DNA of 64,000 nucleotides from Candidatus Latescibacterota bacterium (GCA_965208835.1 OZ242358.1:3736433-3800432), one strand, 5' to 3'. Positions 12,691 to 57,724 are shown, counted from the stretch's first letter. Notes: generated from the letters alone by a model not told the origin. Numbers and translations are program-made.

Positions 12691-13041
12691 GCGGGGAGAC
12701 GGGAGACGCAAGAGGTAAGAGATGACTCGCCTCGCCAGGTTGCAATTCATGCCGGAGGCCTAACAGCCCGTTGAAAAAGTCCATCCGGGCTGCGGCCGGC
12801 CCTTGCGGTCGAAATACTGCGTTGCGCTCCCTCGCCGAATCACAGGATGGGACTCGGTCGCGCGCCTTGTCTTCGACCACAATGGCTCGGCCTCGCCTGC
12901 AGAGCGACTTTATCAACGGACTGCTAAAGGAGGAACATATCGGCAAAGACCTCTTCTCACGTCTACCCTCTCCCGTCTACCCGCTTTTGGGCTTTTCCTT
13001 CTTCCTTTCTACTTCTTCCTTTTGCCTTTCTCCTGCTTCTT
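12691..13041. repeat. GA-rich / CT-rich inverted element (family 3), interrupted by family-1 copy a
   Basis: Left arm GCGGGGAGACGGGAGACGCAAGAGG (12691-12715) is an imperfect reverse complement of CCTCTTCTCACGTCTACCCTCTCCCGTCTACCCGC (12950-12984). A CT-rich tract continues to about 13041. Shares AGACGTGAGA with 21827..22056. Confidence 0.5.
12764..12923 (+). repeat. Family-1 palindromic MITE-like repeat, copy a (160 bp, full length)
   Basis: Runs CAGCCCGTTGAAAAAG...CTTTATCAACGGACTG and is flanked by CTAA on both sides (12760-12763 and 12924-12927). Confidence 0.85.
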
Positions 13042-13106
13042 ACAATAAGAAAGGAGGACGATCCGACGGACCGCCCCCCCCTCTATGTTTACCGCGCACC
13101 GTGCCC

Positions 13107-14150
13107 CTAGAACGTCCCGCCCACGGACAAACGCAACGGTGGATCGAAGATGCCCAGATCCGCGTTGTGGTAGGAAAGGTCCACGGTGATCAGCTGACCG
13201 CCCGGCAGTTCGTGCTTCAGACCGGCGCCGACGCTCCAGCTTTCAAGAGCCGTATGCGTACGGTAACCCGCACGAAGCGCCAGCGTGTTCTCCAGCCAGA
13301 GTTCCCCGCCCATGCGGGTAATCGGCCGGAAGTCCGTCACGAACTCGTGCTCCAGTGAGAGCGTAAAGTATCCGGGATCGCCCTTCTGCCCGAATATCTC
13401 CATCGCGCCGCCAAGGGAGTACGTGGTGGGCATTACCGCCGTGAAACCGCCCTCGGTCGCCTTGACGTTCGGACCCAGGTTCCGGAAACTCATGGCGATC
13501 CTGCTGCTACGGTACCCGGTGTAAAAGTGGGTGCCGATACTGTAGTCCAGGGTAGAGACCTTCTCAAGGTGCAGATCTTCCTGGATCCAGCGAATCTGAC
13601 CGCCCAGCATGAATTTGTCGGTCATCTTCTTGGCGAAAATGGCGCCGAGGGCAATATCGCTGCCCCTGAACATGGTACCCGTGCCCCAGGGGGCCGTCGG
13701 CGTCGTGACTTCCATCTCCTCCGTCTGAAAGCTGTTAACCGTAAACCCGATGGTCCCGAACCCTGCGTTGAACGCCAGAGCCCCCGAGACCAGCGAAGAG
13801 TTGGACAGCCAGCGGGTGTAATTCAGCGTATAGCCGACGTTCTCGATGTGCCCGATACCCGCGGCATTCCAGAACGCGGCGGTGATATCGTCGGCGATGG
13901 CGGTGTAGGCCCCGCCCATCGCCTCGGCGCGGGCGCCCTGGCCGATTTTCAGGAACGGGAACTCGGAAAGTCCCACGCGCTCGACCCAGAGGCCCCAAGC
14001 CTTGTCAACGTTTTCCATCTTCGGATCGATCAACGCCCCGTCGCGCGACCCGGTGCCGGGCGCCGGCTGCTCTACCGCCATCGCCGGCGTCGCGGACAGG
14101 AGAGCGACGGTCACGAGGGCCAATCCCAAGATGAGCCATCCTTTTTTCAT
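13107..14150 (-). CDS. PorV/PorQ-like outer-membrane beta-barrel protein
   Basis: 347 aa, RBS AAGGAG, signal peptide ending ATPAMA. Motif GARAEAMGGAYTAIADDITAAFWNAAGIG is typical of the PorV/PorQ (UPF0164) family. C-terminal F. Confidence 0.65.
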   Translation of the reverse strand: MKKGWLILGLALVTVALLSATPAMAVEQPAPGTGSRDGALIDPKMENVDKAWGLWVERVGLSEFPFLKIGQGARAEAMGGAYTAIADDITAAFWNAAGIGHIENVGYTLNYTRWLSNSSLVSGALAFNAGFGTIGFTVNSFQTEEMEVTTPTAPWGTGTMFRGSDIALGAIFAKKMTDKFMLGGQIRWIQEDLHLEKVSTLDYSIGTHFYTGYRSSRIAMSFRNLGPNVKATEGGFTAVMPTTYSLGGAMEIFGQKGDPGYFTLSLEHEFVTDFRPITRMGGELWLENTLALRAGYRTHTALESWSVGAGLKHELPGGQLITVDLSYHNADLGIFDPPLRLSVGGTF

Positions 14151-14181
14151 AGCAATTCTCCTTAAGACGTCGCGAGGTTCG

Positions 14182-21826: not shown

Positions 21827-22056
21827 GGGAAGACGTGAGACGAGTAAAGGAGAGAGTGGAGAGAAGTGAGAAAAGAGAGAGTCGAGGGCCTCTCGCTCCT
21901 CTTCCCTACCGTGTTTACCGAATTGCATTCCTCACTCCTCACTCCTCTTACCTCACTCCTCGCTCTTCACTCCTCTTTCCATTCGCGTTTCCCGATCTGC
22001 GTTCTCTCACTCTTCACTCCTCTTTTCTCTCTCCTCGCTCTTCACTCCTCACTCCT
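21827..22056. repeat. GA-rich / CT-rich inverted element (family 3) with an internal ~75-nt direct repeat
   Basis: GA arm 21827-21888 (GGGAAGACGTGAGACGAGTAAAGGAGAGAGTGGAGAGAAGTGAG...) is followed by a CT arm of CCTCACTCCTC-type units. CCTCGCTCTTCACTCCTC occurs at 21958 and 22033. Confidence 0.55.
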
Positions 22057-22765
22057 GGTGCTGCGGAAGGGGCTGCGGTCTGCATCGCTCTTCGATGCTG
22101 CCGTCCGCCTTACCGATCACGACCTGGTGCGCGAGACCGACAAAGAGGCCGGATTCAACGACGCCGCAAATCGCGGCGATACAGCGCTCAAGATCCGCGG
22201 GGTCATCGATGGCGGCGAAGGCGCAGTCCAGAATGTGGTTGCCGTTGTCCGTAACGAAAGCCCGGTTCTCACTAACGCGCAGTCGTACCCGGCACCCGAG
22301 AGCCTCGAGTTTCAGTCGAACGTACTGCCAGCCGAAGGGGACCACTTCCACCGGCAGCGGGAATCCTCCGAGGCGGTCCTTGAGTTTGGATTCGTCGGCA
22401 ACGATGATTTCACGGTGGCTGGCTGTAGCCACGAGTTTTTCGCGGAACAGGGCGCCGCCGCCGCCCTTGATGAGGTTGAAAGCGGGATCGATCTCGTCCG
22501 CGCCGTCTATAGTCAGGTCTATCCGTATGGTCTCGGCGAAATCGATAAGTGGAATCCCTTCGCGTTCCGCCTGAATCCGTGACTGCTCAGAGGTTGGGAT
22601 CCCACGAATCAGAAGACCCTCGCGAACGCGTTCGCCCAGCTTCTGAATTGCGTAGAACGCGGTCGATCCGGTCCCGAGGCCGACGATCATCCCGTCGTCC
22701 ACCAGTTCGGCGGCCCGTTCCCCTGCGGCTTTTTTCGGGTTGGGAGACACCTTGTCATTTCGCAA
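22049..22765 (-). CDS. rpiA: Ribose-5-phosphate isomerase A
   Basis: 238 aa with a TTG start. KKAAGERAAELVDDGMIVGLGTGSTA, TIDGADEID, LIKGGGGALFREK. The last codons run into the CT-rich element. Confidence 0.85.
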   Translation of the reverse strand: MRNDKVSPNPKKAAGERAAELVDDGMIVGLGTGSTAFYAIQKLGERVREGLLIRGIPTSEQSRIQAEREGIPLIDFAETIRIDLTIDGADEIDPAFNLIKGGGGALFREKLVATASHREIIVADESKLKDRLGGFPLPVEVVPFGWQYVRLKLEALGCRVRLRVSENRAFVTDNGNHILDCAFAAIDDPADLERCIAAICGVVESGLFVGLAHQVVIGKADGSIEERCRPQPLPQHQE

Positions 22766-22767
22766 CG

Positions 22768-22791
22768 TAGAGCGACCTTATCAACGGACTG
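22768..22791 (+). repeat. Family-1 right-end remnant (24 bp)
   Basis: TAGAGCGACCTTATCAACGGACTG matches the last ~24 nt of family 1. It sits directly upstream of the rpiA start. Confidence 0.6.
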
Positions 22792-22913
22792 CTATGCTCC
22801 CTGTAAAATTCCAGGTCTGATCCGACTCGCGGGGAATTTATACATTGGCGATCCCCGTTGCAACGACAAATGACCGTGACATACGACGGCCGCGGCGTTC
22901 GTCGCCGGGTCAT

Positions 22914-23057
22914 CATCCCGTTGAAAGAGCCCAACCGGGCTACGGCCGGCCCATGCGGTCGAAATACTGCGTTGCGCTCTCGTCGAATCGCTCGACGGGA
23001 CCCGGTCGCGCGTCTTGTCTTCGGCCTCGCCTGCAGAACGACTTTATCAACGGACTA
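22914..23057 (+). repeat. Family-1 repeat, copy b (144 bp, diverged ends)
   Basis: Runs CATCCCGTTGAAAGAG...CTTTATCAACGGACTA and lacks the ACAATGGCTCGG segment of the right arm. Confidence 0.8.
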
Positions 23058-23167
23058 TAAGACCAAAAACAATTGACAATCTCGACCGTATACATCATAT
23101 ATATAGATCAGACGGTTCTGAGAGCGACCCTGCCAATCACGGACGACCTGTGAACCCGGGAGGCCAT

Positions 23168-24013
23168 GTGGCGTACGACACACTCGAAGATTTTTTCGGA
23201 GATATCGTGGGGAAAGCCAGGCGCGGGCTGGGCTTTTCGGAAGAATCGCTTGCAGACGCAGCGGGGTTGAGCGCAGGAGATATCGGACGCATTGAAGCCT
23301 ACGAATTCACGCCCGGCGAGGACGGAATTCTCGCCCTGGCCGGCTCTTTGGATCTGGACGGACAAAAGCTGATGCGGATTGCGAACGGGTGGGTGCCGGA
23401 GTACGGAAATGCGCCGCACGACGACGCGCGACTGTCCGTCGAACGAACGATTCTGGACGCCGGCATGGAAGTGAACGCCTATGCGATGAAGTGCAAGGCG
23501 ACCGGGGAAGGCGCGATTGTGGACGCGGGCGGGCAGGCGAATCGGATTCTTGCGCTGGCAGAGCGTATGCATTTGAAGGTGACGCACGTGCTGCTTACAC
23601 ACGGGCATGGCGACCACGTGGGGGCGCTGGCTGAAATCGCGGCAACAACCGGCGCCCGGGTGTGTTGTTGCGAACGGGACTTCGGACTTCTGGGCAGCCT
23701 GAAGGAACTCGTGACCGATCAGGTGGACGACGGCTGGCGGACGAAAGTGGGACGAATCGCCATCGATGCGGTGAGTCTCCCCGGGCATACGGCCGGCGGA
23801 ATCGGTTACGGCGCCGACGGGGTATTCTTCTCGGGCGACGCGCTCTTCGCGGGATCCATGGGCGGCGCGCTGGGTCCGGCATATACCGGTCAGATCAGTG
23901 CAGTAACGGAAAAGGCCCTGTCCCGGGATGAGAAAACCCGCGTTTTCCCCGGGCACGGACCCATCACCTCCATCGCCGAGGAACTGAAGCACAACCCGTT
24001 TTTTGCGCTCTGA
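23168..24013 (+). CDS. XRE-like HTH domain fused to an MBL-fold (glyoxalase-II-like) metallo-hydrolase
   Basis: The ORF track starts at 23015, inside repeat b. The in-frame GTG at 23168 has GGGAGG upstream. HTH-like segment: KARRGLGFSEESLADAAGLSAGDIGRIE. MBL motifs: LLTHGHGDHVGA, LPGHTAGG, GDALFAGS, FPGHGP. Confidence 0.7.
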   Translation: MAYDTLEDFFGDIVGKARRGLGFSEESLADAAGLSAGDIGRIEAYEFTPGEDGILALAGSLDLDGQKLMRIANGWVPEYGNAPHDDARLSVERTILDAGMEVNAYAMKCKATGEGAIVDAGGQANRILALAERMHLKVTHVLLTHGHGDHVGALAEIAATTGARVCCCERDFGLLGSLKELVTDQVDDGWRTKVGRIAIDAVSLPGHTAGGIGYGADGVFFSGDALFAGSMGGALGPAYTGQISAVTEKALSRDEKTRVFPGHGPITSIAEELKHNPFFAL

Positions 24014-27100: not shown

Positions 27101-27389
27101 CCAGGGCGAATTGTTCCTGGACATCGGCGGCGCCTTTGAACGAGAGAGATGGCGCGACGGCTGGATCGCCCGCGACGGCGGCTTTGAGCTCAATGTGCCA
27201 CAACACTTCCGCGGCGGGAGGTCCAAACACGGTCTCGAGAAACCGCAGATGGCAGCTGGGTACGGATTCGGCGTTCGGGTTAACCTGGGCTACTTCCTGT
27301 TCCGGTACGATCTGGCCTGGCCCACGGACTTTGCGCAGACCTACCATCCGCACCAGTATTTTTCAATTGACATTACGGGACATTTTTAG
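24144..27389 (+). CDS. HExxH (peptidase-MA-like) + PD40/TolB-type beta-propeller + Omp85/BamA-type beta-barrel fusion protein
   Basis: ATG at 24144 (MSRWVLLFGIVLFSCG) has AAGGAG upstream. HHELVH motif. Six or more repeats of the WSPDGKQIAF / DIYLM type. A/E/D-rich linker. C-terminal barrel ends ...YFSIDITGHF. Confidence 0.7.
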   Translation: MSRWVLLFGIVLFSCGIAMGQEYFGKNKVTYDDYDWHYLETEHFKIYFDKASQSAAEFAAKEAERSLVRLEKDLKYTLKDRYPIVIYNSHNGFSVTNITPTEQSEFTGGFTEFAQGRVVIPYTGSYADFRHVIHHELVHVVTLEMWTGGGWLGAMMTQTASLPPLWIAEGVAEYLSQGGWDREADNFMRHATITGFVPGMMSLSGAFAYKGGQSVFVMIEEEYGKDKVAEFISSFRSARSVDKALKASVGEGVEELDEKWQLWLKRQYWNEINLHHPSEEVAKQLTEAGAGRGFYNIAPSFSPQGDKIAYVTERQGTFDIYLMSAIDGQDLGRLVEGERSSDFEGLFVLRPGITWSPDGKQIAFAAKSRNKNTLYTLDVRKKRVTKRFKFDLDGLFEPTWSPDGKQIAIVGLKDGWSDVYVVDVADESLRRMTRDPYDEKHLDWSPDGKWIAISSDRPSAALAYDGSKDFEFGVYDVFVLKADGSEIRRVVESEVNDSHPTWGPDSQTLAFVSDRTGVGNVYITRVDGSQMYPISNLLSGARYIDWSADGKKLAFTTFHRGGYDIFVMKDPRKQKRGMEDLPLTRYAKRLAGIEDRPFVELQRERQQEQKAAAAVDSGGVAAQEDTAAVVAAADRKVETWMSDQMALAAAEASGGDEEEAGTDTLETDGDRELTLRDWNREFTVNKYRVKLKPEFFGANAGFDTFYGVSSLLHLSLTDVMGDHRLIIQSGLSFSLKDSDLFLGYQNLKHQTNYYLSAFHTRLFFFDRGQLNADRYFGAEASLVRPFSRFSRMELGTRGIRISRERLERERYDNRWVRRGFTGSSLRGLSGTEVDSRGAVVSYLALVDDNSLMGGFGAVDGRRVRLGVEGSWAGMRFAALNVDLREYMLALDEYTFAFRLSGGTSFGQNKRVYFVGGVNNPVNPNFSTFANVDQDRIFFSSFVWPLRGVELFELAGDTYVLANAAFRFPLIRELIMGWPLPLFFQNVQGELFLDIGGAFERERWRDGWIARDGGFELNVPQHFRGGRSKHGLEKPQMAAGYGFGVRVNLGYFLFRYDLAWPTDFAQTYHPHQYFSIDITGHF

Positions 27390-27504
27390 CAGCCAGGACG
27401 ACCCAAAAATCGCGCCGGCGTATAATGCCGGTCCGCCTCTCCGCAAGTCCGGCGCGAAACCGTCTGGCGGTGCCTGAATTCGGAGTTTCGGGAGAACGTG
27501 TGAA

Positions 27505-28921: not shown

Positions 28922-29812
28922 TCAGTAGCCAAATCCGCGCAGGGCCTGTTCCTTTTTCCGCCAATTCTGGACAACCTTCACCCGCAGGTCCAGATAGATC
29001 GGGGCATCCAGGAAGGCTTCAATCTTGCCTCGCGCATTCTTGCCAATGGATTTCAGTGTATTTCCGTTTCCACCGATGACGATGCCCTTCTGGGACTTCC
29101 GTTCGACGACAATACTGGCCCGTATGTAGGTTCTGTGGCCGCCTTCCCGGTACGTCTCCACTTTGACCGTCGTTGCATAGGGCAGTTCCTGACGCAGTTG
29201 CAGGAAAATCTCCTCCCTGATGAGTTCGGTGACAAAAAACCGCTCCGGGTGCTCGGTGAGCATGTCTTCCGGGAAGAATAGAGGTCCTGAAGGCAGCGCC
29301 TGCTCAAGACTGGACAGAAGCAGATCGACATTGTCACCGGATTGGGCTGAGACCGGCAGAACATCCTGTACCTGGGCCTCTTTCCTCACGGTATCTGCGC
29401 ACTGCATTGCCCGGGCCGGGGAAACCAGGTCGGATTTATTGACCGCGACGATGCGCGGGCTCCGGACCCTGCGGAGGACTTCACGCATTTCCTGGTCGAA
29501 CGTGGCATCGAAGGCCGAGGCGTCAATCACACCAAGAAACACATCCGCGTCACTCACGGAACGCCTTATCTGATCGCACATTCGCTCGTGCAGACGGCAA
29601 CGGGGTTGAAACAAACCCGGGGTATCCAGAAAAATCATCTGAGAGGTCCGCGAGGTGAGAATGCCCGATACCCGGTGCCGCGTGGTCTGAGGTTTTGCGG
29701 TTACAATGGACAGGCGTTCGCCGACGAGCAGGTTAAACAGCGTGGACTTGCCCACGTTGGCCTTGCCGGCGATGGCGATATATCCGGATTTGAAATCGTC
29801 CGCGTTTTGCAT
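28922..29812 (-). CDS. era: GTPase Era
   Basis: 296 aa. G1 AGKANVGKST, G2 PQTTR, G3 DTPG, G4 NKSD, and a C-terminal KH domain (KGIVIGGNGNTLKSIG). Confidence 0.9.
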   Translation of the reverse strand: MQNADDFKSGYIAIAGKANVGKSTLFNLLVGERLSIVTAKPQTTRHRVSGILTSRTSQMIFLDTPGLFQPRCRLHERMCDQIRRSVSDADVFLGVIDASAFDATFDQEMREVLRRVRSPRIVAVNKSDLVSPARAMQCADTVRKEAQVQDVLPVSAQSGDNVDLLLSSLEQALPSGPLFFPEDMLTEHPERFFVTELIREEIFLQLRQELPYATTVKVETYREGGHRTYIRASIVVERKSQKGIVIGGNGNTLKSIGKNARGKIEAFLDAPIYLDLRVKVVQNWRKKEQALRGFGY

Positions 29813-29827
29813 AAAAGAGTTCAGAAT

Positions 29828-30775
29828 TCAGAAATACAAGGAACCCGAGATGCGGTAGGTGTTGTCCAATTCACCATGTTCCAGAAAGGCGAGGTCGAAA
29901 GCAACGCGTCTCCCCAGCCTGACGCCCGCACCTGCGGTAAAGTGATTTCCCCTTGCACCCAGACGCAAGGCCAGCTTGTTCCGGTACAGGTATTCAATGC
30001 CGACTCTCGCACCCTGAAAATTGTCCGCGGCGGACTTTTCCTCTCCGACGCTGATACTCCCGCTGCAGGTGATCACTCCGTCAGCCGACTCAACAGGCCG
30101 CGCGAGCGCGAGCCCGAACACAAGGACCGGCGGGACCCGGTCCGACGAGCCGGAGTCGAAAGTGATCTTCAGGGGAATGAGATTACGAACCATCAGTCCG
30201 GCGGTGAGGCCGTGACGGGGGATATAGAGCATGCCGAAATCGATACCGAATCCCGATCCTTTTCCGGCGTCGAGGTTGCGGGATACGAGCTTCACTCCGG
30301 CGCCCGCGGACAGATTCGACCTCAGGCGCCGGCCAAAGGCAAGATGCAGGTGGTACTCAGTTGTACCCGCGACACGGGAGACGACGGGACGATTGTCCGG
30401 GCCCGGCGCAAATGTTGGATTTTCAAGAGTGGTGATCTTGACGCCGTCCACGCCCAGGCGCGTAAGGCCGACGCCAAATCCGCCGAGAGGAGAAGGCCCG
30501 CACAGGGTAAAGACGTCATGGTTGACCGTCCCGCCGAACTGCTCGGCATGTTGTATCTGCAATTCTCGCCGCCGGAGCCGTTCAAGGCCTGCGGGGTTCC
30601 AATAAATGGCTGTCGCATCGTCACTTACGGCCACAAAAGCGCTGCCCATCCCCAGAGGTCTTGCGCCAGCGCCGAGCAGCAGCGGGTCTTCTGAATAACG
30701 GGTTTCGTCCTGCGCTGTAACCGGCACGGGTCGCGACAGGGCGAGCATCAGAATCGCTAGGAGAAACTGCTTCAC
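29828..30775 (-). CDS. PorV/PorQ-like outer-membrane beta-barrel protein (second copy)
   Basis: The ORF track extends to 31039 through repeat c. The in-frame GTG at 30775 gives VKQFLLAILMLALSRPVPVTAQ. Motif GARPLGMGSAFVAVSDDATAIYWNPAGL. Ends ...ISGSLYF. Confidence 0.65.
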   Translation of the reverse strand: MKQFLLAILMLALSRPVPVTAQDETRYSEDPLLLGAGARPLGMGSAFVAVSDDATAIYWNPAGLERLRRRELQIQHAEQFGGTVNHDVFTLCGPSPLGGFGVGLTRLGVDGVKITTLENPTFAPGPDNRPVVSRVAGTTEYHLHLAFGRRLRSNLSAGAGVKLVSRNLDAGKGSGFGIDFGMLYIPRHGLTAGLMVRNLIPLKITFDSGSSDRVPPVLVFGLALARPVESADGVITCSGSISVGEEKSAADNFQGARVGIEYLYRNKLALRLGARGNHFTAGAGVRLGRRVAFDLAFLEHGELDNTYRISGSLYF

Positions 30776-30790
30776 GGGACGGACTCTTAC

Positions 30791-30950
30791 CAGCCCGTTG
30801 AAAAAGCCCATCCGGGCTGCGGACGGCCCTTGCGGTCGAAATACTGCGTTGCGCGCCCTCGCCGAATCGCAGGATGGGACTCGGTTGCGCGTCTTGTCTT
30901 CGGCCGCGATAGCTCGGCCTCGCCTGCAGAGCGACTTTATCATCGGACTG
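30791..30950 (+). repeat. Family-1 repeat, copy c (160 bp, full length)
   Basis: Flanked by TTAC on both sides (30787-30790 and 30951-30954). The right-hand duplication contains the TAA stop of the upstream minus-strand gene. Confidence 0.85.
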
Positions 30951-31517
30951 TTACGGTATGAAATCAAAGGTTGGAACAAGAATCGCGGTGCTTCCCGGCC
31001 GGAGAGCGGAGTCCAGAGCCTTGATGTCGGACGAAACAAGGGCGATGCCGAAGGTCCTGTCAGGCAGAGGAAATTCGTACGGCTGGATGAGCAGGGAAGG
31101 TGAGAAATACAACCTGGAACGACCCCGGGGACCCTCTATCAGCCGGCCACTGAAATCAATCGGTAGCCGTCGGCCGCGAAGCCGGAGCCCGGAATTTCCG
31201 GGTTCGACACTGTGGGGGGCAAGCCGGGCGATCATTTGGAGTTGCGACGACGACGGGTTTGACGCTTCCGCAAGTCGATAATTCTGAATTGCGCATACCC
31301 TCAGGATATGCGCTCCGGCCTTCAGATAGACCTTGCGGGTTGGAAGGTCGATGACGAGGTAGTAGTCGTCGGGATTCTTGCTTACGAATCGAAGTTCGAG
31401 GTCCAGTGCCTGTTTTCTGTTAAGAAGCGTCTGTTCGAGCGAGTCCGGAGCGCTCGCGGCGCCGGCCGGGACAGACGGTATGGACAAGGAGATCAGGATG
31501 GCGAAAGGTAGAGTCAA
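30951..31517 (-). CDS. Hypothetical exported protein
   Basis: I trimmed the 292-aa ORF to the TTG at 31517, which overlaps the TGA of the L,D-transpeptidase gene (TTGA overlap). N-terminus LTLPFAILISLSIPSVPAGAASA is signal-like. No recognised domain. Confidence 0.4.
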   Translation of the reverse strand: MTLPFAILISLSIPSVPAGAASAPDSLEQTLLNRKQALDLELRFVSKNPDDYYLVIDLPTRKVYLKAGAHILRVCAIQNYRLAEASNPSSSQLQMIARLAPHSVEPGNSGLRLRGRRLPIDFSGRLIEGPRGRSRLYFSPSLLIQPYEFPLPDRTFGIALVSSDIKALDSALRPGSTAILVPTFDFIP

Positions 31518-32140
31518 TAGATGTACACACGGCTTCCGGTGTGTGCCCTGGCGAACGTGGACTTGAGGTCGGCGTCGTTCAGACGAATGCATCCGTGGGT
31601 GATATTTCGCCCGATCAGATTCGGGTAGAGATTGCCGTGAATCTCGTAGCCGTCGCCCAGATCCAGTGCGAACTTGCCCAGCGTGACCGGATCCAGGCGT
31701 CTGAAATCCCACGGTAGTACGGGAGCCTCCAGACCTGCCTCCACGAAAGCCCATTCCGGCTTCTGCCATATCGGGTTCACCACTTTTCGCCGGATTTCGA
31801 ATCGTCCTTTCGGCGTGTTGAACCGCCACAATTTCCGCTTGTCGCTCAACAGAATCTTTCCGCTTCCGGTTGCGCAGACCGCTTCCTCCAATAGACGGTT
31901 TCGGTGCCAGACCTGCAGGCGATTGTGTACCGTGTCGATAACTATATTCGGCCTTTCGTCCAACAACGCGTTGAGGGCGGCTTCCAGCCTCTCGATTTCC
32001 ACCTCAAGACGCTTAACTGCTGACGACGAAACGGGGGCGCCTGCCGGACCGGTGCGCGGGCTCGGGGCGTCCTTCGGACCCGTCTGGCAAGCGACGGTGA
32101 CCAACAAAGATAGAGAAAAAGAGAAAGAAAACCGGAGCAT
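31514..32140 (-). CDS. L,D-transpeptidase (YkuD domain), probable lipoprotein
   Basis: 208 aa. N-terminus FSLSLLVTVACQ. Catalytic context GRNITHGCIRLNDAD. Confidence 0.75.
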   Translation of the reverse strand: MLRFSFSFSLSLLVTVACQTGPKDAPSPRTGPAGAPVSSSAVKRLEVEIERLEAALNALLDERPNIVIDTVHNRLQVWHRNRLLEEAVCATGSGKILLSDKRKLWRFNTPKGRFEIRRKVVNPIWQKPEWAFVEAGLEAPVLPWDFRRLDPVTLGKFALDLGDGYEIHGNLYPNLIGRNITHGCIRLNDADLKSTFARAHTGSRVYIY

Positions 32141-32155
32141 GCAAAGCGTACCAAA

Positions 32156-32341
32156 GAAGCTGTCTTAAAATTCCCAGCGGTCTTCGCACGGCTGCAAAAG
32201 CGCCAGTCGGCGTTGGTCAAACCCACCCGTCCTACGAGATCGAGGCTGCGCTTGCTCGCCTCTCATAGGCGAGTCTTCCCGCCTTGACCGCCACTTTTTC
32301 GCTCGTGCTCGGGAACTCACCGGTAATTTTAAAACAGCTTC
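32156..32341 (+). repeat. Family-2 palindromic repeat, copy 2a (186 bp)
   Basis: Runs GAAGCTGTCTTAAAATTCCCAGCGG...CCGGTAATTTTAAAACAGCTTC. The left end is 15 nt from the minus-strand start at 32140. Confidence 0.8.
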
Positions 32342-32386
32342 TAAAACTGGAAAACCGAGAAGAGTGAAGGCTTCTCGGTTTTCCAG
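32341..32386 (-). terminator. Rho-independent terminator of the lipoprotein gene
   Basis: Perfect 16-bp stem CTGGAAAACCGAGAAG / CTTCTCGGTTTTCCAG (32347-32386) with an 8-nt loop, followed on the minus strand by TTTTAG. Confidence 0.75.
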
Positions 32387-32416
32387 ATTAACAGCTTGAT
32401 TGAACGCAGCGTTGGA

Positions 32417-33019
32417 CTATCGTAGATACCAGGCTTTGTTTTCCTCTTTCCAGTCTTCGATTTTCTGCATTGCGGTACCAACTGCGTCCTTTACCCCGCC
32501 CAACTTGCCTTCCGCGGTCTGAGCCTGGGCAAGGGCATCCATGAACATACCGTTTTCCAGGCTTCCCTTTGCGCTATTCAAGGACGCCTCGGCTTCCCCA
32601 AGGTCTGCATCGAGCTGGTCCAGATCTTCATCCGCCCCTTTTCCGCGGGGCGCCGCATTAAGCGCTTCACGGGCTTCCGCCAGACCTGGAGAGGTCGAAT
32701 CTATGATCGCCTGAGCGTCGTCGCGTGTTTTCGCCTTGTTGGTTTCCGCCTGTGTTACGGACTGGTTTGCGCGTTCCTCCGCTTCGATTGCGGCGGCTCT
32801 GGCCTCTTTATATTCGCCTTTTTCTGTTTTGTCCTTGGCATCCTGCAATGTATTCGTGGCTGAACGGAAAATCTCCTCGGCGTAGACATCGGCCTCGGCG
32901 GCCTTTGCTTTGCTGAGGGCGCCTTCCGCGGCTTTGATTTCTTCTTCGGGAGGTTGTTCGCAAGCCACAAAGGCCGCGGCAAAACAAACAGCAAGGCCGA
33001 TTCTCAGAACAGATCGCAT
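32417..33019 (-). CDS. Ala/Glu-rich coiled-coil lipoprotein (DUF4398-like)
   Basis: 200 aa with RBS AAGGAGGGG. Lipobox-like AAFVAC. Repeated A/E/K helical segments. The DUF4398 assignment is from memory only. Confidence 0.5.
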   Translation of the reverse strand: MRSVLRIGLAVCFAAAFVACEQPPEEEIKAAEGALSKAKAAEADVYAEEIFRSATNTLQDAKDKTEKGEYKEARAAAIEAEERANQSVTQAETNKAKTRDDAQAIIDSTSPGLAEAREALNAAPRGKGADEDLDQLDADLGEAEASLNSAKGSLENGMFMDALAQAQTAEGKLGGVKDAVGTAMQKIEDWKEENKAWYLR

Positions 33020-33301
33020 CTCCCCTCCTTGGTTGATAAGACCTCGAACGTTGCCAACAAGTCAAACAGAAATAACCATTTCCGAAACAACCCACAGTAA
33101 ATACATTTATACAGGAAGAAGATACATCCTAAGTTCAACAATGTCAAGCGATTTCTCCACAAATTTCGCCACTGCGCACCGGGAAGACTCGATCCGGGCG
33201 GCGCCTGGAATGCCGACAACAAAGGGTGTAATAGAGAGAGATGGAACCCCCGGTACCCACGATGAATCCAGTCCCGCCAGACCGCGTCCGTGCCCCTCTC
33301 G

Positions 33302-33762: not shown

Positions 33763-33820
33763 TTACGGACAACAGCAACACATCGACAGAAGACACTGCA
33801 GGAACAACAGGAGGAATCCA

Positions 33821-37123: not shown

Positions 37124-37145
37124 TCTCAAGATTCAGGAGTTGAAA

Positions 37146-42011: not shown

Positions 42012-44066
42012 GTGGTTTTGGCAATCGAACCCAAAGACCCTAGAGAAGAGCAGGAACAGTACGAAAACATCATGCCGGTCGATGCGCCGTTCGAAGATGG
42101 CTTCAATATGAAGACCCTGTGGGCGACGCTTTTTGTGGGCCTGGTGATGCTGCCCGGTGCAATCTATCTTGGCCTGGTTACCGGACAGAACATGGCGGGT
42201 GCGTCCGAATGGGTGACCATCATCCTCTTCCTGGAAATCGCCAAAAGGTCCTTCGTGAGGCTGAAGACGCAGGAGGTCCTGGTCATCTACTGGGTTGCCG
42301 GCGGATTGCTGGGCGTGGGCGTCCGGTTGGGCAGCGCGGCACTGGTGTATGGAGGGCCGTTCGGCGGATTGATCTGGGATCAATACCTGATCCAGTCCCC
42401 GGCCGCCAGAGGGCTTGCGGATTTCATACCGGACTGGGTGGTTCCCCGGATCAGCGAACATCCGGAGATTTACGCGGAACGTACGTTCCTGCACGCCGCG
42501 TGGTTGAAGCCGATCGGCATCCTCGTCGCATTGACACTGTTAAGCAATACCGCGAGACTGTCGCTTGGGTACGTGATGTTTCGCATTACGAGCGACATCG
42601 AACGGTTGCCGTTTCCGCTGGCTCCAGTCCAGGCCCGCGGGGCCACCGCGCTCGCCGAAACGTCGGCCAAACAGGAAGGCTGGAGATGGCGGGTATTCAG
42701 TACAGGAGCGTGTATCGGATTGGTCTGGGGCCTTCTGTATGTCGTGGTCCCGACACTGTCCAGCATATTCCTGACCGATACGGTCCAGATCCTTCCCATT
42801 CCCTGGATCGATTTCACGGAACAGATCAAGACCATCCTGCCCGCTGCGCTGTTTGGAATAGCAACCGACCTGGGCCACCTGATCGTCGGGTTCGTTTTGC
42901 CGTTCTGGGTGGTTATCGGGTCGTTCGCCGGCGCCGTCCTTGGAAACCTGGTTGTCAATCCGTTTCTGTACAGATGGGAAATCCTGGACCGCTGGTCCGC
43001 GGGCATGACGGCGATCCCGACTTCGATCTCCAACCAGTTCGACTTCTGGCTCAGCTTTGGGATCGGCACTTCGTTCGTCATCGCGTTCACTGGATTCTAC
43101 CAGGTGTTTCGGGTGCTTATGGAACAGCGCCGTCAGAAGCAGCAAACGGGGCATCATACGTCCGGTATCGACCTCGAGGACCTTCCGAAGGGCCGGTCGG
43201 ATATGAAGATGATTTACCCTATTCTGTTCTGGGGCGCCGCCACATTGGGCTTTATCGTGATGTGCCAGATGCTGGTTCCCGAGTTCCACTGGGGCTGGGT
43301 CGTGTTCTTCGGACTCATTTACACGCCGATTTCTTCTTATATCGGCGCGCGCATGATCGGCCTGACGGGAAGCCCGTACGGGGCGAGTATCCCCTATTTA
43401 CGGGAAGCGGGAATACTTCTTTCCGGATACAAGGGCGTCGCGGTCTGGTTCGCCCCCCTTCCGCTGCACGACCACGGCCTGGCCGTGCCTACCTACAAAC
43501 AGATGGAACTCACGAAAACGAAATTTGTCAGTTACGTGAAATTGACCGCGGTGACCATGGTGGTCATTTTCATCTTCAGCTTCATCTTCTGGGAATTCAT
43601 CTGGCGACTTGGACCCATTCCCTCATCCAGCTATTACTATGTGCAGACATTCTGGCCATACGACGCCACAATGACCACGATGTGGCTAAAGTCGACAATG
43701 CCGGACCTCGAAGGGCAAGGGACCGTCGGCGTCGAACTCCTCAAAGATATTATCAAACCGGAACTCATCGGCGCCGGATTCGCCGTTGGCGGCCTCATGT
43801 ATCTCATTCTGGCCGCGCTGAAAGCGCCTACGCTGTTCTTTTTCGGCTTCGTGGGCTCGCTTGCAACATGGCCGCATTTCGTGATCCTGCAGTTTGCCGG
43901 CGCACTGCTTGGACGTTTCTATTTCGCCAGGCGTTTCGGCGAATCCAAGTGGCGGGCGTACGCACCCATTCTGCTGGCAGGATATTACTGTGGCATGGGG
44001 CTCATCGGGATGACTTCGGTTTCCGTTGTGCTGATTTCAAAGGCCGTCTCCCAGGTCGTATTCTAG
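42012..44066 (+). CDS. Polytopic (12 or more TM) membrane protein ('P2'), paralog of 4982..6949
   Basis: 684 aa. The GTG at 42012 directly abuts GAGGAGG, so the TTG at 42018 has better spacing. Motifs FIPDWVVPR and FRITSDIERLPFPLAPV parallel IPHWLAPR and QWMESERISFPILRPV in P1. Confidence 0.65.
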   Translation: MVLAIEPKDPREEQEQYENIMPVDAPFEDGFNMKTLWATLFVGLVMLPGAIYLGLVTGQNMAGASEWVTIILFLEIAKRSFVRLKTQEVLVIYWVAGGLLGVGVRLGSAALVYGGPFGGLIWDQYLIQSPAARGLADFIPDWVVPRISEHPEIYAERTFLHAAWLKPIGILVALTLLSNTARLSLGYVMFRITSDIERLPFPLAPVQARGATALAETSAKQEGWRWRVFSTGACIGLVWGLLYVVVPTLSSIFLTDTVQILPIPWIDFTEQIKTILPAALFGIATDLGHLIVGFVLPFWVVIGSFAGAVLGNLVVNPFLYRWEILDRWSAGMTAIPTSISNQFDFWLSFGIGTSFVIAFTGFYQVFRVLMEQRRQKQQTGHHTSGIDLEDLPKGRSDMKMIYPILFWGAATLGFIVMCQMLVPEFHWGWVVFFGLIYTPISSYIGARMIGLTGSPYGASIPYLREAGILLSGYKGVAVWFAPLPLHDHGLAVPTYKQMELTKTKFVSYVKLTAVTMVVIFIFSFIFWEFIWRLGPIPSSSYYYVQTFWPYDATMTTMWLKSTMPDLEGQGTVGVELLKDIIKPELIGAGFAVGGLMYLILAALKAPTLFFFGFVGSLATWPHFVILQFAGALLGRFYFARRFGESKWRAYAPILLAGYYCGMGLIGMTSVSVVLISKAVSQVVF

Positions 44067-44221
44067 TGTTCTGTCCCAAAAATATCTAACCATTCAGCCG
44101 CCGATTCATCCCGTCTCGCGGCGTTGCCTTCCCTCGCCGACCTTCCGCAGGTCGGAGGCGCCTTGCGAGCCGGGCGACTCGACAGCTGAATTTAGGCAAC
44201 CTATTTCCGGGACAGAACACT
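44065..44221. repeat. Singleton 157-bp long palindrome abutting the P2 stop codon
   Basis: AGTGTTCTGTCCC (44065-44077) pairs with GGGACAGAACACT (44209-44221). Inner pairs are ATTCAGC/GCTGAAT and a central CGACCT-TCCGC-AGGTCG. Confidence 0.6.
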
Positions 44222-44223: not shown

Positions 44224-44322
44224 CAGTCCTTTGATAAAGTCGCTCTGTAGGCGAGGCCGCGCAATGCAGTATTTCGACCGCAAGGGCCGGCCGCAGCCCG
44301 GATGGGCTCTTTCAACGGGCTG
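44224..44322 (-). repeat. Family-1 repeat, copy g (99-bp internal-deletion subfamily, reverse orientation)
   Basis: Runs CAGTCCTTTGATAAAGTCGCTCTGTAGGCGAGGCCGCGCAATGCAGTATTTCGACCG...CAACGGGCTG, with the same junction type as copy f. Confidence 0.75.
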
Positions 44323-48481: not shown

Positions 48482-48714
48482 GAAGCTGTCCTAAGATTCC
48501 CAGCGGTCTTCGCACGGCTGCAAAAGCGCCGGTCGGCGTTGGTCAAATCCACCCGTCTTATGAGATCGAGACTGCGCTTGCTCGCCTCTCATAGCCGGAT
48601 TTTCCCGTCGGCGCTGCGCGCCCCTCGTGCCTCGGCACTACGCGCCCCTCGTGCCTCTTAACCGCAACTTTTTCGCTCGCGCTCGGGAACTCACCGGTAA
48701 TTTTAAGCAACTTC
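48482..48714 (+). repeat. Family-2 palindromic repeat, copy 2c (233 bp, long variant)
   Basis: Carries an extra central segment with CGCGCCCCTCGTGCCTC duplicated at 48617 and 48641. The right end is 15 nt upstream of the ATG at 48730. Confidence 0.8.
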
Positions 48715-48729
48715 TAACAGGAGGATGTT

Positions 48730-50051: not shown

Positions 50052-50287
50052 GAAGAGCTGTCTTAAAATTCCCAGCGGTCTTCGCACGGCTGCAAAAGCG
50101 CCGTGCGGCGTTGGTCAAACCCACTCGTCTTACGAGATCGAGGCTGCGCTTGCTCGCCTCTCATAGGCGGGTTTTCCCGTCGGAGCCGCGCGCCCCTCGT
50201 GCCTCGGCACTACGCGCCCCTCGCGCCTCATAGCCGCCACTTTTTCGCTCGTGCTCGGGAACTCACCGGTCAATTTAAAACAGCTTC
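50052..50287 (+). repeat. Family-2 palindromic repeat, copy 2d (236 bp, long variant)
   Basis: Runs GAAGAGCTGTCTTAAAATT...GGTCAATTTAAAACAGCTTC, with the same central duplicated segment as 2c. Confidence 0.8.
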
Positions 50288-50367
50288 CGAGGCTTGTGGG
50301 TTGACAAGCTGCGGTGAATGTGCTATCTTTTTCCGTTTCAGAATTTTACACGATTTGTGCTGTGTAG

Positions 50368-50527
50368 CAGTCCGTTGATACTGTCGCTCTGCAGGCGAGG
50401 GCGAGACGTCGTGGCCGAAGACAAGGCGCGCGACCCAGTCCCATCCAGCGATTCGGCGAGGATGCGCAACGCAGGCCTTTGGCCACGAGAGCCGGCCGCA
50501 GCCCGGATGGGCTTTTTCGCCGGGCTG
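50368..50527 (-). repeat. Family-1 repeat, copy h (160 bp, most diverged full-length copy)
   Basis: Runs CAGTCCGTTGATACTGTCGC...TTTTTCGCCGGGCTG. Flanks are GTAG and CTAT, so there is no intact duplication. Confidence 0.75.
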
Positions 50528-50545
50528 CTATATCCAGGAGAACGC

Positions 50546-51424
50546 ATGGTTGTCAGCATGACGGGTTTCGGGAGGGGAGAAGTCGAAACAGACGGCTACC
50601 GGGCGTCGGTGGAACTGCGGTCTGTCAACGGGCGCTACGGCGAGGTATCCGTCCATTTGCCCAGACACCTGTCTCCCCTGGAACAACGGATCAAGGAGCT
50701 CGTGCTTTCAGTTTTCTCCCGGGGCCACATTCGTGTCTCGGTGAGTGTGAGCGGCGACTCGCTTGGACAGGGCATCCCGGTTCTGAATGAACGTGTCTTT
50801 GAGGGATATCGAGACGGACTTGCGCGGTTGCAGACTCGTTTGGGCGCTTCAAATGCACCCGATCCCCTGCAGGTCGCGCTGATGCCGAGTGTATTCGAAA
50901 TCGAAACCAGCCCACCGGATCTGGAAGCAGTCTGGAAGGTGGTTGCGCCGGCCTGTGAACGGGCCGTCGCTCAATGCCATTCGATGCGGGAGACAGAGGG
51001 AAAACAGCTGGCAGCGGATCTCGTCCAGCGGGTTCATCAACTCGAGGATCTGGTGGGGCAAATACAGGAATTGGCACCCGGTCAGGTCGCGTCCACCCGC
51101 AGGAGGCTCGACGAGAAACTCCGGGAACTCATCGCCCCTGAGAGTGTCGACCAGAACCGTCTCCTCACGGAAATTGCCCTGCTCTCGGAGCGCATGGACA
51201 TTACCGAGGAAACGGTCCGCTTCCACAGTCACAACGAACAGTTTCTGAAGACGCTGGGTCGCGACGAGCCGGTCGGCAGGCGTCTGAATTTTCTTCTCCA
51301 GGAGATGCTCCGCGAGGCAAACACAATCGGCTCCAAAGCAGGCGACACCGGAATTGCGCATCTGGTGGTTGGGATCAAGGAAGAGATCGAGAAGCTCAGA
51401 GAGCAGGTGCAGAATATAGAATAG
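50546..51424 (+). CDS. yicC: YicC-family protein (TIGR00255)
   Basis: ATG at 50546 follows CAGGAG; the ORF track start lies inside repeat h. MVVSMTGFGRGE..., SVNGRY, and C-terminal LLQEMLREANTIGSKA. Confidence 0.85.
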   Translation: MVVSMTGFGRGEVETDGYRASVELRSVNGRYGEVSVHLPRHLSPLEQRIKELVLSVFSRGHIRVSVSVSGDSLGQGIPVLNERVFEGYRDGLARLQTRLGASNAPDPLQVALMPSVFEIETSPPDLEAVWKVVAPACERAVAQCHSMRETEGKQLAADLVQRVHQLEDLVGQIQELAPGQVASTRRRLDEKLRELIAPESVDQNRLLTEIALLSERMDITEETVRFHSHNEQFLKTLGRDEPVGRRLNFLLQEMLREANTIGSKAGDTGIAHLVVGIKEEIEKLREQVQNIE

Positions 51425-56029: not shown

Positions 56030-56668
56030 ATGGAAGGTTACCGATCTCCAGTCAGGGTATCCAAGCTGCTCTCACTGATGCTCAGGCATCGGCCGGAAGA
56101 GTTCGGCGTCCAGGTGGACGGGTACGGCTTCGCGGACTTCGACGCGGTGATATCCGCATTGAAGAAACAGGATGCCGATATCGAAGTCGAGGACGTAGAA
56201 GCATTGGTATATAAGGCCACCAAGAAACGGTTTGAGATTGTCGAAGGGCGGATCCGTGCGCGCTATGGACATAGTTTCGCCATGGAACTGGGATCCGAAC
56301 CCATCGAACCTCCCGAACACCTGTACAAGGGCGCAGGCGTGTCGGAAGTGGAAGGCATTCTGAGATCGGGATTGAAGCCCGATAACAGGCAATACGTACA
56401 TCTCTCTTTCGACGCTGACGTCGCGCGAAGGCTTGCGGGACACCGGCGGGAGCCGGGGACCGTGATACGGGTTGAGGCGAGAAAGGCCGCCGGGGGCGGG
56501 ATTCAGTTCTTCGACTGCGGCCCCACGGTCCTCTCACGGGAAATTCCGCCCGATTTTCTCACTGTCGAAGACACACCGGCGCCGGTTCTGGATGGCGGCG
56601 TGTCTGAGAAGCAACGCGAGGAACCGGTTTCGTACGGAAGAAAACGTCGATTTGGGTCGCGGAGATAG
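56030..56668 (+). CDS. kptA: RNA 2'-phosphotransferase (Tpt1/KptA family)
   Basis: VRVSKLLSLMLRHRPEEFGVQVDGYGF, RIRARYGHS, LYKGAG, YVHLS. The ATG at 56030 has GAGGA seven nt upstream. Confidence 0.8.
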   Translation: MEGYRSPVRVSKLLSLMLRHRPEEFGVQVDGYGFADFDAVISALKKQDADIEVEDVEALVYKATKKRFEIVEGRIRARYGHSFAMELGSEPIEPPEHLYKGAGVSEVEGILRSGLKPDNRQYVHLSFDADVARRLAGHRREPGTVIRVEARKAAGGGIQFFDCGPTVLSREIPPDFLTVEDTPAPVLDGGVSEKQREEPVSYGRKRRFGSRR

Positions 56669-56673
56669 CAAAC

Positions 56674-57564
56674 GTGGCAAAACAGGATCGGTCGGGAGCA
56701 CACGCATTGTTGAAAACAGCCGCCAGTCTCTCCGGCGAGATTGGCGCTGATCTCGTTTTGCTCGTGGCGGACTCCGGTGTGACCAGGACGGCTGTTCAAT
56801 CCCTGAACGATTCCTGTCCGGTGCTGCTGGTTACCCGACGCAATCGCTTTCTTCAGGGTATCGAGAGTATGGGGATCCGCCGGTTAAGGCTTGATTTCGA
56901 CGATGTTTCTCATCTGGAACGGGTGCGGCAGGGCATTATGCTGGGCATGGAGGCCGGTCACATCAAAAAGGGCAGTCGGCTGATCTGCCTCTCAAGCGTC
57001 ATGGAACACGGTGGTGTGGACACGTTGATGACCGTGGATACCCGCAGGGAGTTTGAGGACTTCGATCCGGAGAGCCTGGCTCTGCTTGCGGACGATCTCC
57101 CAATCGAAGTGGTCAAGTCGGTGCTGGATATCGCCCTTGACATCGGACGTGAAGGCCGGGAAGGGGAGCAGGTAGGCACCCTCTTCGTGCTGGGCGACTC
57201 CGACCGCGTGCTGGCGAATTCCCGCGTGATGACGTATGATCCGTTCCGCGGGTATTCAAGACGGGAGCGGAACATCTGCGATCCCGACAACCGCGAAGGT
57301 GTGAAGGAGGTTTCTCTGATGGACGGCGCCTTCATCGTCCAGGAGGATGGCGTCATTCGCTCAGGTTGTCGCTATATCACCTCCTACGTGAGGGGTCTCA
57401 CCCTGCCCAAGGGGTTGGGTGCGCGGCATGTCGCCGCGGCAGCGGTAACCAAGAACACCGAAGCGATCGCGGTGGCGGTTTCGGAGTCTACCGGTACGGT
57501 TCGGGTCTTTAAACGCGGAGAGATCGTCCTCCGGCGAGACCCGGGCCGCCGCATCGCCCGTTAG
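56674..57564 (+). CDS. CdaZ/DacZ-type diadenylate cyclase (pyruvate-kinase-C-like N-domain + DAC domain)
   Basis: GTG start 5 nt after the kptA stop, with GGAGA upstream. DAC motifs DGAFIV and LGARHVAAAAVTKNTEAIAVAVSESTGTVRVF. No TM segments. The N-domain ADLVLLVADSGVTRTAVQSL..PVLLVTR resembles a PK C-terminal domain. Confidence 0.6.
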   Translation: MAKQDRSGAHALLKTAASLSGEIGADLVLLVADSGVTRTAVQSLNDSCPVLLVTRRNRFLQGIESMGIRRLRLDFDDVSHLERVRQGIMLGMEAGHIKKGSRLICLSSVMEHGGVDTLMTVDTRREFEDFDPESLALLADDLPIEVVKSVLDIALDIGREGREGEQVGTLFVLGDSDRVLANSRVMTYDPFRGYSRRERNICDPDNREGVKEVSLMDGAFIVQEDGVIRSGCRYITSYVRGLTLPKGLGARHVAAAAVTKNTEAIAVAVSESTGTVRVFKRGEIVLRRDPGRRIAR

Positions 57565-57724
57565 CAGTCCGTTGATAAAGTCGCTCTGCAGGCGAGGCCG
57601 AGCCATTGTGGCCGAAGACAAGGCGCGCGACCGAGTCCCATCCTGCGATTCGGCGAGGGAGCGCAACGCAGTATTTCGACCGCAAGGGCCGGCCGCAGCC
57701 CGGATGGACTTTTTCAACGGGCTG
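57565..57724 (-). repeat. Family-1 repeat, copy i (160 bp, full length, reverse orientation)
   Basis: Flanked by TTAG on both sides (57561-57564 and 57725-57728). The left duplication contains the TAG stop of the cyclase gene. Confidence 0.85.

Follow-up and report, generated by a model that had tools for sequence, protein, structure and literature searches.

A repeat of about 160 bp recurs nine times within 45 kb of a 64,000-nucleotide stretch of DNA from a Candidatus Latescibacterota bacterium (GCA_965208835.1, OZ242358.1:3736433-3800432). We refer to this whole stretch as the window and to the repeat as Family 1. The original prediction, made from the sequence alone, had described the repeat as a palindromic element resembling a MITE (miniature inverted-repeat transposable element), and the locus raises the question of what the repeat is and what moves it. 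Target-site duplications (TSDs) and pairs of empty and filled sites have raised the MITE-like reading to a demonstrated MITE: Family 1 has terminal inverted repeats (TIRs), is flanked by a 4-bp YTAR duplication, is dispersed in many copies and is polymorphic for presence and absence. Very probably it is a type II MITE, a DNA transposon that is not autonomous and is mobilised in trans at YTAR targets by an insertion sequence (IS) of an IS5/IS1182-like type.

Evidence for transposition

Family-1 loci were collected from species-representative genomes as at least 97 stretches of 8 kb with an exact internal 19-mer (fetched sequences are numbered with the prefix L). Because this 19-mer sits inside the element, the sample of loci is biased towards well-preserved copies. 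Among the matches listed, nhmmer found 119 non-overlapping Family-1 matches in 80 loci of eight genomes. True members occurred in at least eight species-level metagenome-assembled genomes (MAGs), while 19-mer matches in other taxa were due to chance. Two-ended copies numbered 75, from nine genomes. Elements are 99-160 bp long, and 55 of the 75 are exactly 160 bp.

That Family 1 is an artefact of assembly, a collapsed or chimeric repeat of this contig, is excluded. Only its high local density (9 copies in 45 kb) would suit such an origin. Against it, the 119 matches come from independently assembled genomes, including two complete chromosomes, and one copy lies on an independent metagenome contig (L179). 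The copies also differ from one another, have unique flanks and hold orthologous positions across assemblies. As at least eight genomes carry Family 1, the concern raised with the original prediction, that copies might be confined to one contig, no longer applies.

The 75 two-ended copies were oriented and the bases just outside their two ends were compared, with right flanks permuted among copies as the null. The flanking 4-mers were identical in 29 copies and differed at one position in 27 more (56/75 within one mismatch), whereas permuted flanks gave 7.3 identical pairs on average and at most 16. Flanks did not match in the other registers (2, 3, 5 and 6 bases, and the next tetramer out). 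The duplicated tetramers were TTAG (23), CTAA (11) and TTAA (10), along with ATAG, ATAA and TTAC, and fit 5'-YTAR-3'. A 2-bp TA duplication of the IS630/Tc1-like kind was ruled out, since the first and fourth tetramer bases on one side vary together with those on the other far more than under permutation.

These duplications bear on a second possible origin, in which Family 1 would be an element like the repetitive extragenic palindromes (REPs) and bacterial interspersed mosaic elements (BIMEs), spread by a REP-associated tyrosine transposase (RAYT), an IS200/IS605-type HUH tyrosine transposase. Family 1 is palindromic, intergenic and present in high copy number, and the window is without a DDE transposase, all of which would fit. 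However, Family 1 has a 4-bp duplication, and to our knowledge HUH/RAYT-type mobilisation makes none. Its length of 160 bp exceeds the roughly 20-40 bp of REPs, its ends match those of DDE-type IS copies, and Pfam scans of the window found no RAYT-like gene. We regard this origin as most improbable. Integron attC sites were set aside on general features (dispersal, both orientations and target duplications), without a dedicated test.

Empty and filled sites were found in orthologous DNA. The window reads GGT ATAG GCTG on the minus strand where OZ242180.1 (L053) reads GGT ATAG, then the element, then CTAG CCTG. The unoccupied target lies at 59845-59848 (CTAT on the plus strand, ATAG on the minus strand) and contains the TAG stop of a subtilase gene (59845-63579). 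The empty site contradicts a reading in which the flanking 4-mers belong to the element and are not duplicated target. Conversely, the window copy at 33603 is missing from the orthologous region of L048 (RHO3_bin_7), and at the site of the 33302 copy L048 has a right-end remnant only. L059 carries a full 160-bp ortholog of the 99-bp copy at 44224, so the short form of that copy arose by deletion in place of the 61-nt hairpin tip.

The element filling the site in L053 is a composite of about 326 nt, in which an element of a different family (Family 3, about 160-170 nt) is nested after position ~122 of Family 1. Nine different loci, from at least four genomes, carry the composite (L007, L010, L019, L026, L027, L043, L044, L053 and L069), and at each it has a YTAR duplication of its own. 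Since it spreads with an interrupted hairpin, the composite argues that the ends rather than the foldback serve the transposase. Other internal insertions were also seen. A variant in L086 (880-1200) has a different insertion of ~120 nt just where Family 3 is nested in the composite, and copies of 182-183 nt with an internal insertion of ~22 nt lie in L041 (5489-5670) and L064 (7039-7221).

The partner insertion sequence

Metagenome sequences were scanned with a pattern made of TAR, the Family-1 terminus and two further bases, constraining only one flank. At least 120 stretches matched, against an estimated expectation of about 4 by chance, and many matches lay at contig ends, as is typical for IS copies. 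In 42 of the listed stretches a homologous transposase was found beside the terminus by tblastn. The matches listed include about 31 complete copies of the IS, 1432-1558 bp long and bounded on each side by CAGCCCGTTGAARAAG. Their flanking tetramers were mostly identical, with CTAG/CTAG in the majority and TTAA/TTAA, CTAA/CTAA and TTAG/TTAG also present. The longer, transposase-encoding element with the same ends that the original prediction had proposed to look for thus exists in metagenomes; it was not found in 760 kb of host DNA.

The reference copy of this IS group (L173, 239-1760) has perfect 18-bp inverted repeats, CAGCCCGTTGAAAAAGTC. Its open reading frame (ORF) of 461 aa matches the Pfam families DUF772 (PF05598), DDE_Tnp_1 (PF01609) and DDE_Tnp_1_6 (PF13751), the first two above their cut-offs. 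The best NCBIfam model was IS1182 (NF033551), at 190.7 bits below the cut-off of 270 and over residues 30-324 only, followed by IS5 (NF033581), at 93.3 bits below the cut-off of 140. Target, duplication and transposase architecture place the partner in the IS5/IS1182 superfamily; given these scores we call it IS5/IS1182-like, an approximate assignment that leaves the protein IS1182-like and not a certified member. The transposase has at least 8000 homologues at E <= 1e-30. Close relatives are found in Planctomycetota (Bythopirellula, Thermoguttaceae), where they are labelled simply "transposase" in the sources. Next to the reference IS, 45 bp from its right end, lies another, different DDE_Tnp_1 transposase gene (1805-2794, 329 aa), and the contig is thus an IS cluster.

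The transposases of the complete copies were 46-79% identical to that of L173. Positions 1-16 of both IS ends were almost invariant, and beyond position 18 all differed. The left end of Family 1 equals the left inverted-repeat consensus of the IS group exactly. Relatives on plasmids, with about 49% amino acid identity to the L173 transposase, had related ends and 4-bp duplications. One on pLB1 (1457 bp, annotated "IS5 family transposase") shows a duplication, CTAA/CTAA, next to its CAGGCCGTTGACGAAGTCGG ends, and one on a plasmid of Solidesulfovibrio magneticus is flanked by TGTA/TGTA.

The original prediction recognised no named family in the repeat. This stood as far as RNA families are concerned: Rfam gave 0 matches at the gathering score over the whole window, and a permissive scan of one copy returned noise only (E 0.72 and 5.4). 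The termini, however, are those of the large IS5/IS1182-like group, so Family 1 is no orphan and can be filed under a known transposon superfamily, the IS5/IS1182 type. Two other candidate partners were rejected. The target duplication of IS701 is exactly 4 bp (PMC2266710), but its terminal consensus ---YACT-Y--YR does not fit CAGCCCGTTGAA, and the transposase models favour IS1182/IS5. ISH3 was rejected on its termini; it is also described as confined to archaea, and its duplications are typically of 5 bp.

When 31 full IS copies were compared with the interior of Family 1 and with those of four distant homologues, only chance 11-13-mers were shared. Similarity to the IS is thus confined to the terminal repeats, which makes Family 1 a type II MITE, a class related to its partner IS through the TIRs alone (PMC10969869). 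The matches listed in the metagenome stretches also include some 30 further short elements of 79-345 bp that share the ends and the YTAR duplications, and most of these elements fold back on themselves too. Two size classes recurred with CAGCCCGTTGAAAAAG ends and CTAG/TTAG duplications, one of 101 bp (L116, L117, L156 and L203) and one of 119 bp (L101, L157, L169, L180, L185 and L205). As several size classes lie on independent contigs, many MITE lineages have arisen from this IS group or are supported by it.

A DDE transposase of ~460 aa (DUF772 and DDE_Tnp_1), encoded by an IS of ~1.5 kb with CAGCCCGTTGAAAAAG(TC) termini, would bind the Family-1 ends. Insertion would take place at 5'-YTAR-3' by a 4-bp staggered cut, thereby duplicating the tetramer. 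Transposition would probably be by cut-and-paste, as is typical for IS5-type DDE enzymes. A member of the IS group would be present in the Latescibacterota hosts, or would formerly have been. Insertions into genes were presumably purged, leaving copies that are intergenic and often placed exactly on stop codons. The parts of this scheme observed directly are the ends, the duplication, the target preference, the polymorphism, the mobilisation of the composite and autonomous elements with matching ends and duplications.

Several points weigh against this scheme. Two positions of the Family-1 right end depart from the IS consensus, and the transposase scores below both NCBIfam cut-offs leave its family assignment approximate. 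A tblastn search of the window and of ~760 kb sampled from the eight hosts found no partner-type transposase. All-versus-all BLAST found no long within-genome repeats in the host loci, only remnants and paralogues, and no solo Family-1 end beside an ORF was seen there, inspection of L037 and L043 included. The sampled host DNA is a small and biased share, made up of 8-kb blocks chosen for containing the MITE. For want of a transposase in this sample, we infer the presence of a partner in the Latescibacterota hosts rather than having observed it. Lastly, much of the amplification is old (see below), and the family may not be active at present.

The foldback and its conservation

The original prediction expected each copy to fold into one long imperfect hairpin, and folding bore this out for full copies. 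For the copy at 12764, the predicted energy was -76.4 kcal/mol on the plus strand (z -5.2) and -89.6 on the minus strand (z -8.1), and no shuffle was as stable. Within Family 1, covariation was uninformative because the copies are too similar: column identity was 96% in the 55 full copies from eight species, and 95.0% of cells pair against 94.9% in shuffles. Variation was concentrated at the hairpin tip (columns 79-82) and in a few transition polymorphisms, which turn a pair into a wobble on either strand in roughly equal numbers. A strand preference suggested by the folding energy was dropped, given these balanced wobbles and the unbiased orientation of the copies.

Six metagenome elements of 156-186 nt (L129, L151, L152, L165, L181 and L191) were homologous to Family 1 over their whole length, with 65% column identity. 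Pairing held in 90.1% of cells in these distant homologues, compared with 75.4% in shuffles, 0/500 of which reached the observed value. Changes on both sides were found in 18 of the 38 pairs, against 10.0 expected (0/500 shuffles), and slid registers gave 31-44% pairing. Many of the compensations were transversion swaps (UA/AU, GC/CG), with few G-U intermediates. The foldback has thus been kept by compensatory substitutions across divergent lineages.

Such a structure could also belong to structured non-coding RNA genes or cis-regulatory RNA hairpins and not to a mobile element. The very stable hairpin, the significant covariation among distant homologues and the intergenic location are all in keeping with this. 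However, the TSDs, empty sites and IS-like termini show transposition, both orientations relative to neighbouring genes are equally frequent, and the composite with its disrupted hairpin still spreads. The scarcity of G-U intermediates beside many transversion swaps and the lack of an Rfam match at gathering or permissive thresholds also speak against an RNA family, which we consider highly unlikely.

Given the lack of orientation bias, the constraint on the foldback of this transposon appears to be strand-symmetric and to act on DNA, not on a strand-specific RNA. Its role at the DNA level could lie in the synapsis of the ends of a very short element or in arm-to-arm repair. We suggest only tentatively that the foldback is a selected, functional part of the element, either as a cis requirement for end pairing or through domestication by the host. 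The persistence length of DNA is about 150 bp, and an element of ~160 bp is close to one such length. In the cis version, the foldback might let so short an element join its ends through extrusion of a cruciform or of single-strand hairpins.

Age, conservation and genomic context

Copies differed on average at 8.9 positions within genomes and at 9.05 between genomes. Nearest neighbours in the same genome stood at 5.8 against 7.2 expected, and the same polymorphisms segregate in every genome. Seven pairs of copies from different genomes shared flanks, six of them being clean orthologous pairs. The absence of clustering by genome, the common polymorphisms and the shared insertions indicate that most amplification predates the species splits, while the empty sites indicate that some insertions or losses came after them.

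In all six clean orthologous pairs the element was more conserved than its 300-nt flanks. The identities of element and flanks were 95.6% against 93/92%, 98.1% against 96.7/95%, 96.9% against 90/90%, 87.9% against 78.6% and 98.6% against 97.3/96.7%; for the copy at 30791 and its ortholog in L048 the element was 94.4% identical and the flanks 89% and 84%. This is suggestive of constraint or of gene conversion, and we take it as a lead, from a sample biased by the exact 19-mer.

Constraint could mean that the MITE has been exapted, the host now retaining copies for some structural purpose. They might form hairpins at the 3' ends of mRNAs, which would stabilise transcripts or punctuate them, or serve as sites for nucleoid or other proteins, as proposed for REP/BIME, ERIC and Correia elements. 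Besides the six pairs, this would account for the 96% column identity among 55 copies from eight species, though the genomes differ by 10-16%, and for the compensatory changes that keep the hairpin in distant homologues. Convergent intergenic regions were also somewhat over-represented (22/65 against 95/422). However, orientation to genes was unbiased: copies between tandem genes lay in the same direction in 15 cases and in the opposite one in 19, and relative to a gene whose stop lies in the duplication the counts were 9 and 6. No terminator-like T-run or promoter signal was tied to the copies. Many copies are decayed, truncated or deleted, and presence or absence between close relatives is without visible consequence. 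The 19-mer ascertainment favours well-kept copies, and gene conversion from arm to arm or copy to copy could yield the same conservation without any host function. On this balance we hold exaptation to be unlikely.

Targeting of stop codons was considered and rejected. A first count placed about one third of copies on stops, but with a non-overlapping set of genes the stop lay in the duplication in 15 of 75 copies (20%), against 14.7% of non-genic YTAR-like sites (p = 0.13). The position of copies between genes and often on stops follows from the target motif, which contains TAA or TAG, together with the presumed loss of insertions into genes.

Family-1 copies in the window

The nine copies were recovered alike by repeat finding, by an alignment of nine sequences and by an nhmmer profile search (E 1e-61 to 4e-24), and nhmmer found no further copy in the window beyond these nine and one remnant. 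The coordinates first given for them held, with the sole correction that the copy at 33302 ends at 33427 and not at 33428. Six copies are in plus and three in minus orientation, as first reported. The ends are imperfect 16-bp inverted repeats, CAGCCCGTTGAAAAAG on the left and CAGTCCGTTGATAAAG on the right (read inward), nearly invariant across the 55 full-length copies. The terminus pattern CAGYCCGTTGAWAAAG had 20 matches in the window at up to 2 mismatches against 0.13 expected, in agreement with the inverted-repeat ends that had been predicted.

In plus orientation, full-length copies lie at 12764-12923 (160 bp, perfect CTAA/CTAA duplication, nhmmer E 1.9e-61), at 30791-30950 (TTAC/TTAC, with its ortholog in L048 of RHO3_bin_7) and at 33603-33762 (TTAC/TTAC). 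The copy at 22914-23057 (144 bp) lacks 2 nt and 14 nt of the consensus, and its ends and duplication have decayed (TCAT/TAAG). That at 33302-33427 (126 bp) has roughly symmetric arm deletions (left arm 20 nt, right arm 14 nt), and that at 35219-35317 (99 bp) lacks the central 61 nt of the hairpin tip. The minus-strand copy at 44224-44322 has the same 99-bp form with the central 61 nt gone and adjoins a Family-3 MITE at 44066-44220. The other two minus-strand copies are full length: 50368-50527 is the most diverged, with 23 differences from the consensus, and 57565-57724 has a TTAG/TTAG duplication. The short copies are deletion derivatives that have lost the hairpin tip or matching segments of the arms. 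A solo right-end remnant had also been noted, at 22768-22791. Its presence was upheld, while nhmmer extended it to ~30 nt on the plus strand (22767-22796, model positions 146-175, E 1e-4), with a terminus match CAGTCCGTTGATAAGG at 1 mismatch.

Family 1 is non-coding, and ORFs across copies are spurious read-throughs only. A greedy gene map combined with Pfam scans placed all window copies outside Pfam-supported coding sequence, consistent with the earlier observation that copies lie between genes. Three long ORFs (29828-31039, 50318-51424 and 23015-24013) overlap copies only by an N-terminal extension upstream of the first domain match. The copy at 50368-50527 lies upstream of the Pfam-supported part of a YicC-like gene, and in the left TTAG duplication of 57565-57724 the TAG is the stop codon of a DAC-domain gene (56674-57564). 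Other genes of the window, which has a GC content of ~59%, include PorV and a CarboxypepD_reg TonB-dependent receptor besides YicC, the DAC-domain protein and the subtilase, a set of genes indicative of a member of the FCB group. The earlier statement that the window holds no transposase, integrase or RAYT-like gene was confirmed by Pfam scans, and by tblastn for the partner-type transposase.

ORFs that read into the copies at 12764 and 35219 stop 11 nt inside, at the TGA of the terminal GTTGA, and the same ending was seen at copies in L019, L020, L033, L035, L037, L055 and L064. In one frame each terminus thus supplies a stop codon, and an insertion near the 3' end of a gene would swap only its last codons.

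The region 30700-35400 is a MITE-dense patch, with four Family-1 copies and one Family-2 copy (see below) within 4.6 kb, and differs in length at several points from the orthologous L048 region. Insertions of ~185 and ~218 nt in L048, absent from the window, lie near 27388-27486 and 29804-29828. A CT-rich degenerate tandem repeat with units like CTCACTCCT and CTCTTCACTCCT occupies 21917-22076, upstream of the remnant at 22767.

Host genomes and distribution

Of the eight host MAGs, four are labelled Candidatus Latescibacterota, including the two complete chromosomes OZ242180.1 and OZ220733.1, three are labelled Gemmatimonadota (RHO1_bin_28, RHO2_bin_5 and RHO3_bin_7), and one is labelled "uncultured bacterium". 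The window was 84-90% identical over kilobases to three host loci, which therefore belong to related but different species. Orthologous DNA was 95-98% identical between L049 (OZ242180.1) and L034 (RHO1_bin_28) and between L079 (RHO2_bin_5) and L080 (OZ242180.1), and these pairs carry the same MITE insertions. Since genomes with Latescibacterota and Gemmatimonadota labels share DNA this similar, both phylum labels cannot be right.

Beyond the copy by which a locus had been fetched, host loci contained about one further Family-1 copy per 58 kb, against one per 7 kb in the window. Very roughly, this puts the copy number on the order of 100 per 5-Mb genome and makes the window a dense patch. The Family-1 consensus had no blastn match in 72,556 plasmids and 5,426 E. 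coli genomes, and a single match in viral contigs was to a chance 19-mer.

Other repeat families

A second MITE, Family 2, has inverted ends GAAGCTGTCTTAAAATT...AATTTTAAAACAGCTTC and variants of ~160-235 bp. Its window copies lie at 32156-32380, 36962-37124, 48482-48716 and 50054-50288, and BLAST found it in 17 of the fetched sequences, the window included. The site orthologous to the 32156 copy is precisely empty in L048 of RHO3_bin_7 (ACC TAAA ACTGG), hence Family 2 is also mobile. Family 3 has inverted ends GTGTYCYGWCCCGGAAATAG, with a minus-strand copy in the window at 44066-44220 and a fragment at 58478-58531. The copy begins right at the stop of the gene 42012-44066 and adjoins the Family-1 copy at 44224. 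Related genomes have Family 3 inserted within Family 1, and the resulting composite of ~326 nt has undergone amplification of its own. In addition, L064 (3290-5379, OZ220733.1) contains ~2.1 kb of 261-bp tandem repeats with ~93% identity, probably inside a large repetitive gene.

Comparison with known elements and implications

Family 1 is an unnamed MITE family of an ordinary kind, with an unusually well-preserved hairpin. The searchable literature yielded no description of this terminus, of MITEs in Latescibacterota or of MITEs of IS1182. The transposase InsH of IS5 has ~330 aa, and the IS5 ends GGAAGGTGCGAATAAG have only an inner GAAnAAG in common with the Family-1 terminus. Unlike InsH, the partner transposase has ~460 aa, and it scores below the NCBIfam IS5 cut-off. 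Nor did the Family-1 consensus have a nucleotide match in E. coli genomes. On the other hand, the IS5 family shares with the partner transposase the architecture of DUF772 followed by DDE_Tnp_1, and with Family 1 a preference for non-coding DNA. IS5 duplicates 4-bp YTAR (PMC5009759), as do Family 1 and the partner IS copies. The IS1182 family, whose NCBIfam model was the best, resembles the partner in transposase length, in its DUF772 and DDE_Tnp_1_6 architecture and in IS length (1.43-1.56 kb), and differs in that the partner's score is under the curated cut-off and its match is limited to residues 30-324.

The Correia/NEMIS elements of Neisseria and the ERIC/IRU elements of Enterobacteriaceae are likewise intergenic, ~100-200 bp long, bounded by TIRs and present in tens to hundreds per genome. 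Correia elements duplicate TA and not a YTAR tetramer, and we know of no partner transposase for them. Family 1, in contrast, has an identified type of partner IS, and its host is an uncultured lineage of the FCB group. Correia and ERIC elements have no sequence similarity to Family 1 (no E. coli match). The resemblance is in size, foldback, deletion variants and nesting: transcripts of Correia/NEMIS and ERIC/IRU elements are predicted to form long stem-loops, and both internal-deletion variants and nested elements occur (PMC10969869).

The general view of MITEs is unchanged by these results, and Family 1 is a clean, unusually well-documented example of them. For annotation, a repeat of Latescibacterota-type MAGs now has a consensus, exact boundaries, a 4-bp YTAR rule and a type of partner IS, and at least two further MITE families are known from the same genomes. 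Annotating Family 1 should prevent spurious ORF calls over its copies, and the family accounts for breaks in contigs and for intergenic regions that vary in length between related MAGs. One conserved terminus of 16-18 bp serves transposases only 46-79% identical to the reference, and a foldback lineage of ~160 nt, unrelated to the IS interior, rides on this IS group in unrelated environments. If the foldback is indeed a selected part of the element, this lineage would have persisted in distant lineages of bacteria as a parasite in its own right of a single transposase group, sharing only 16-18 bp with its partner and keeping its stem by compensatory substitutions.

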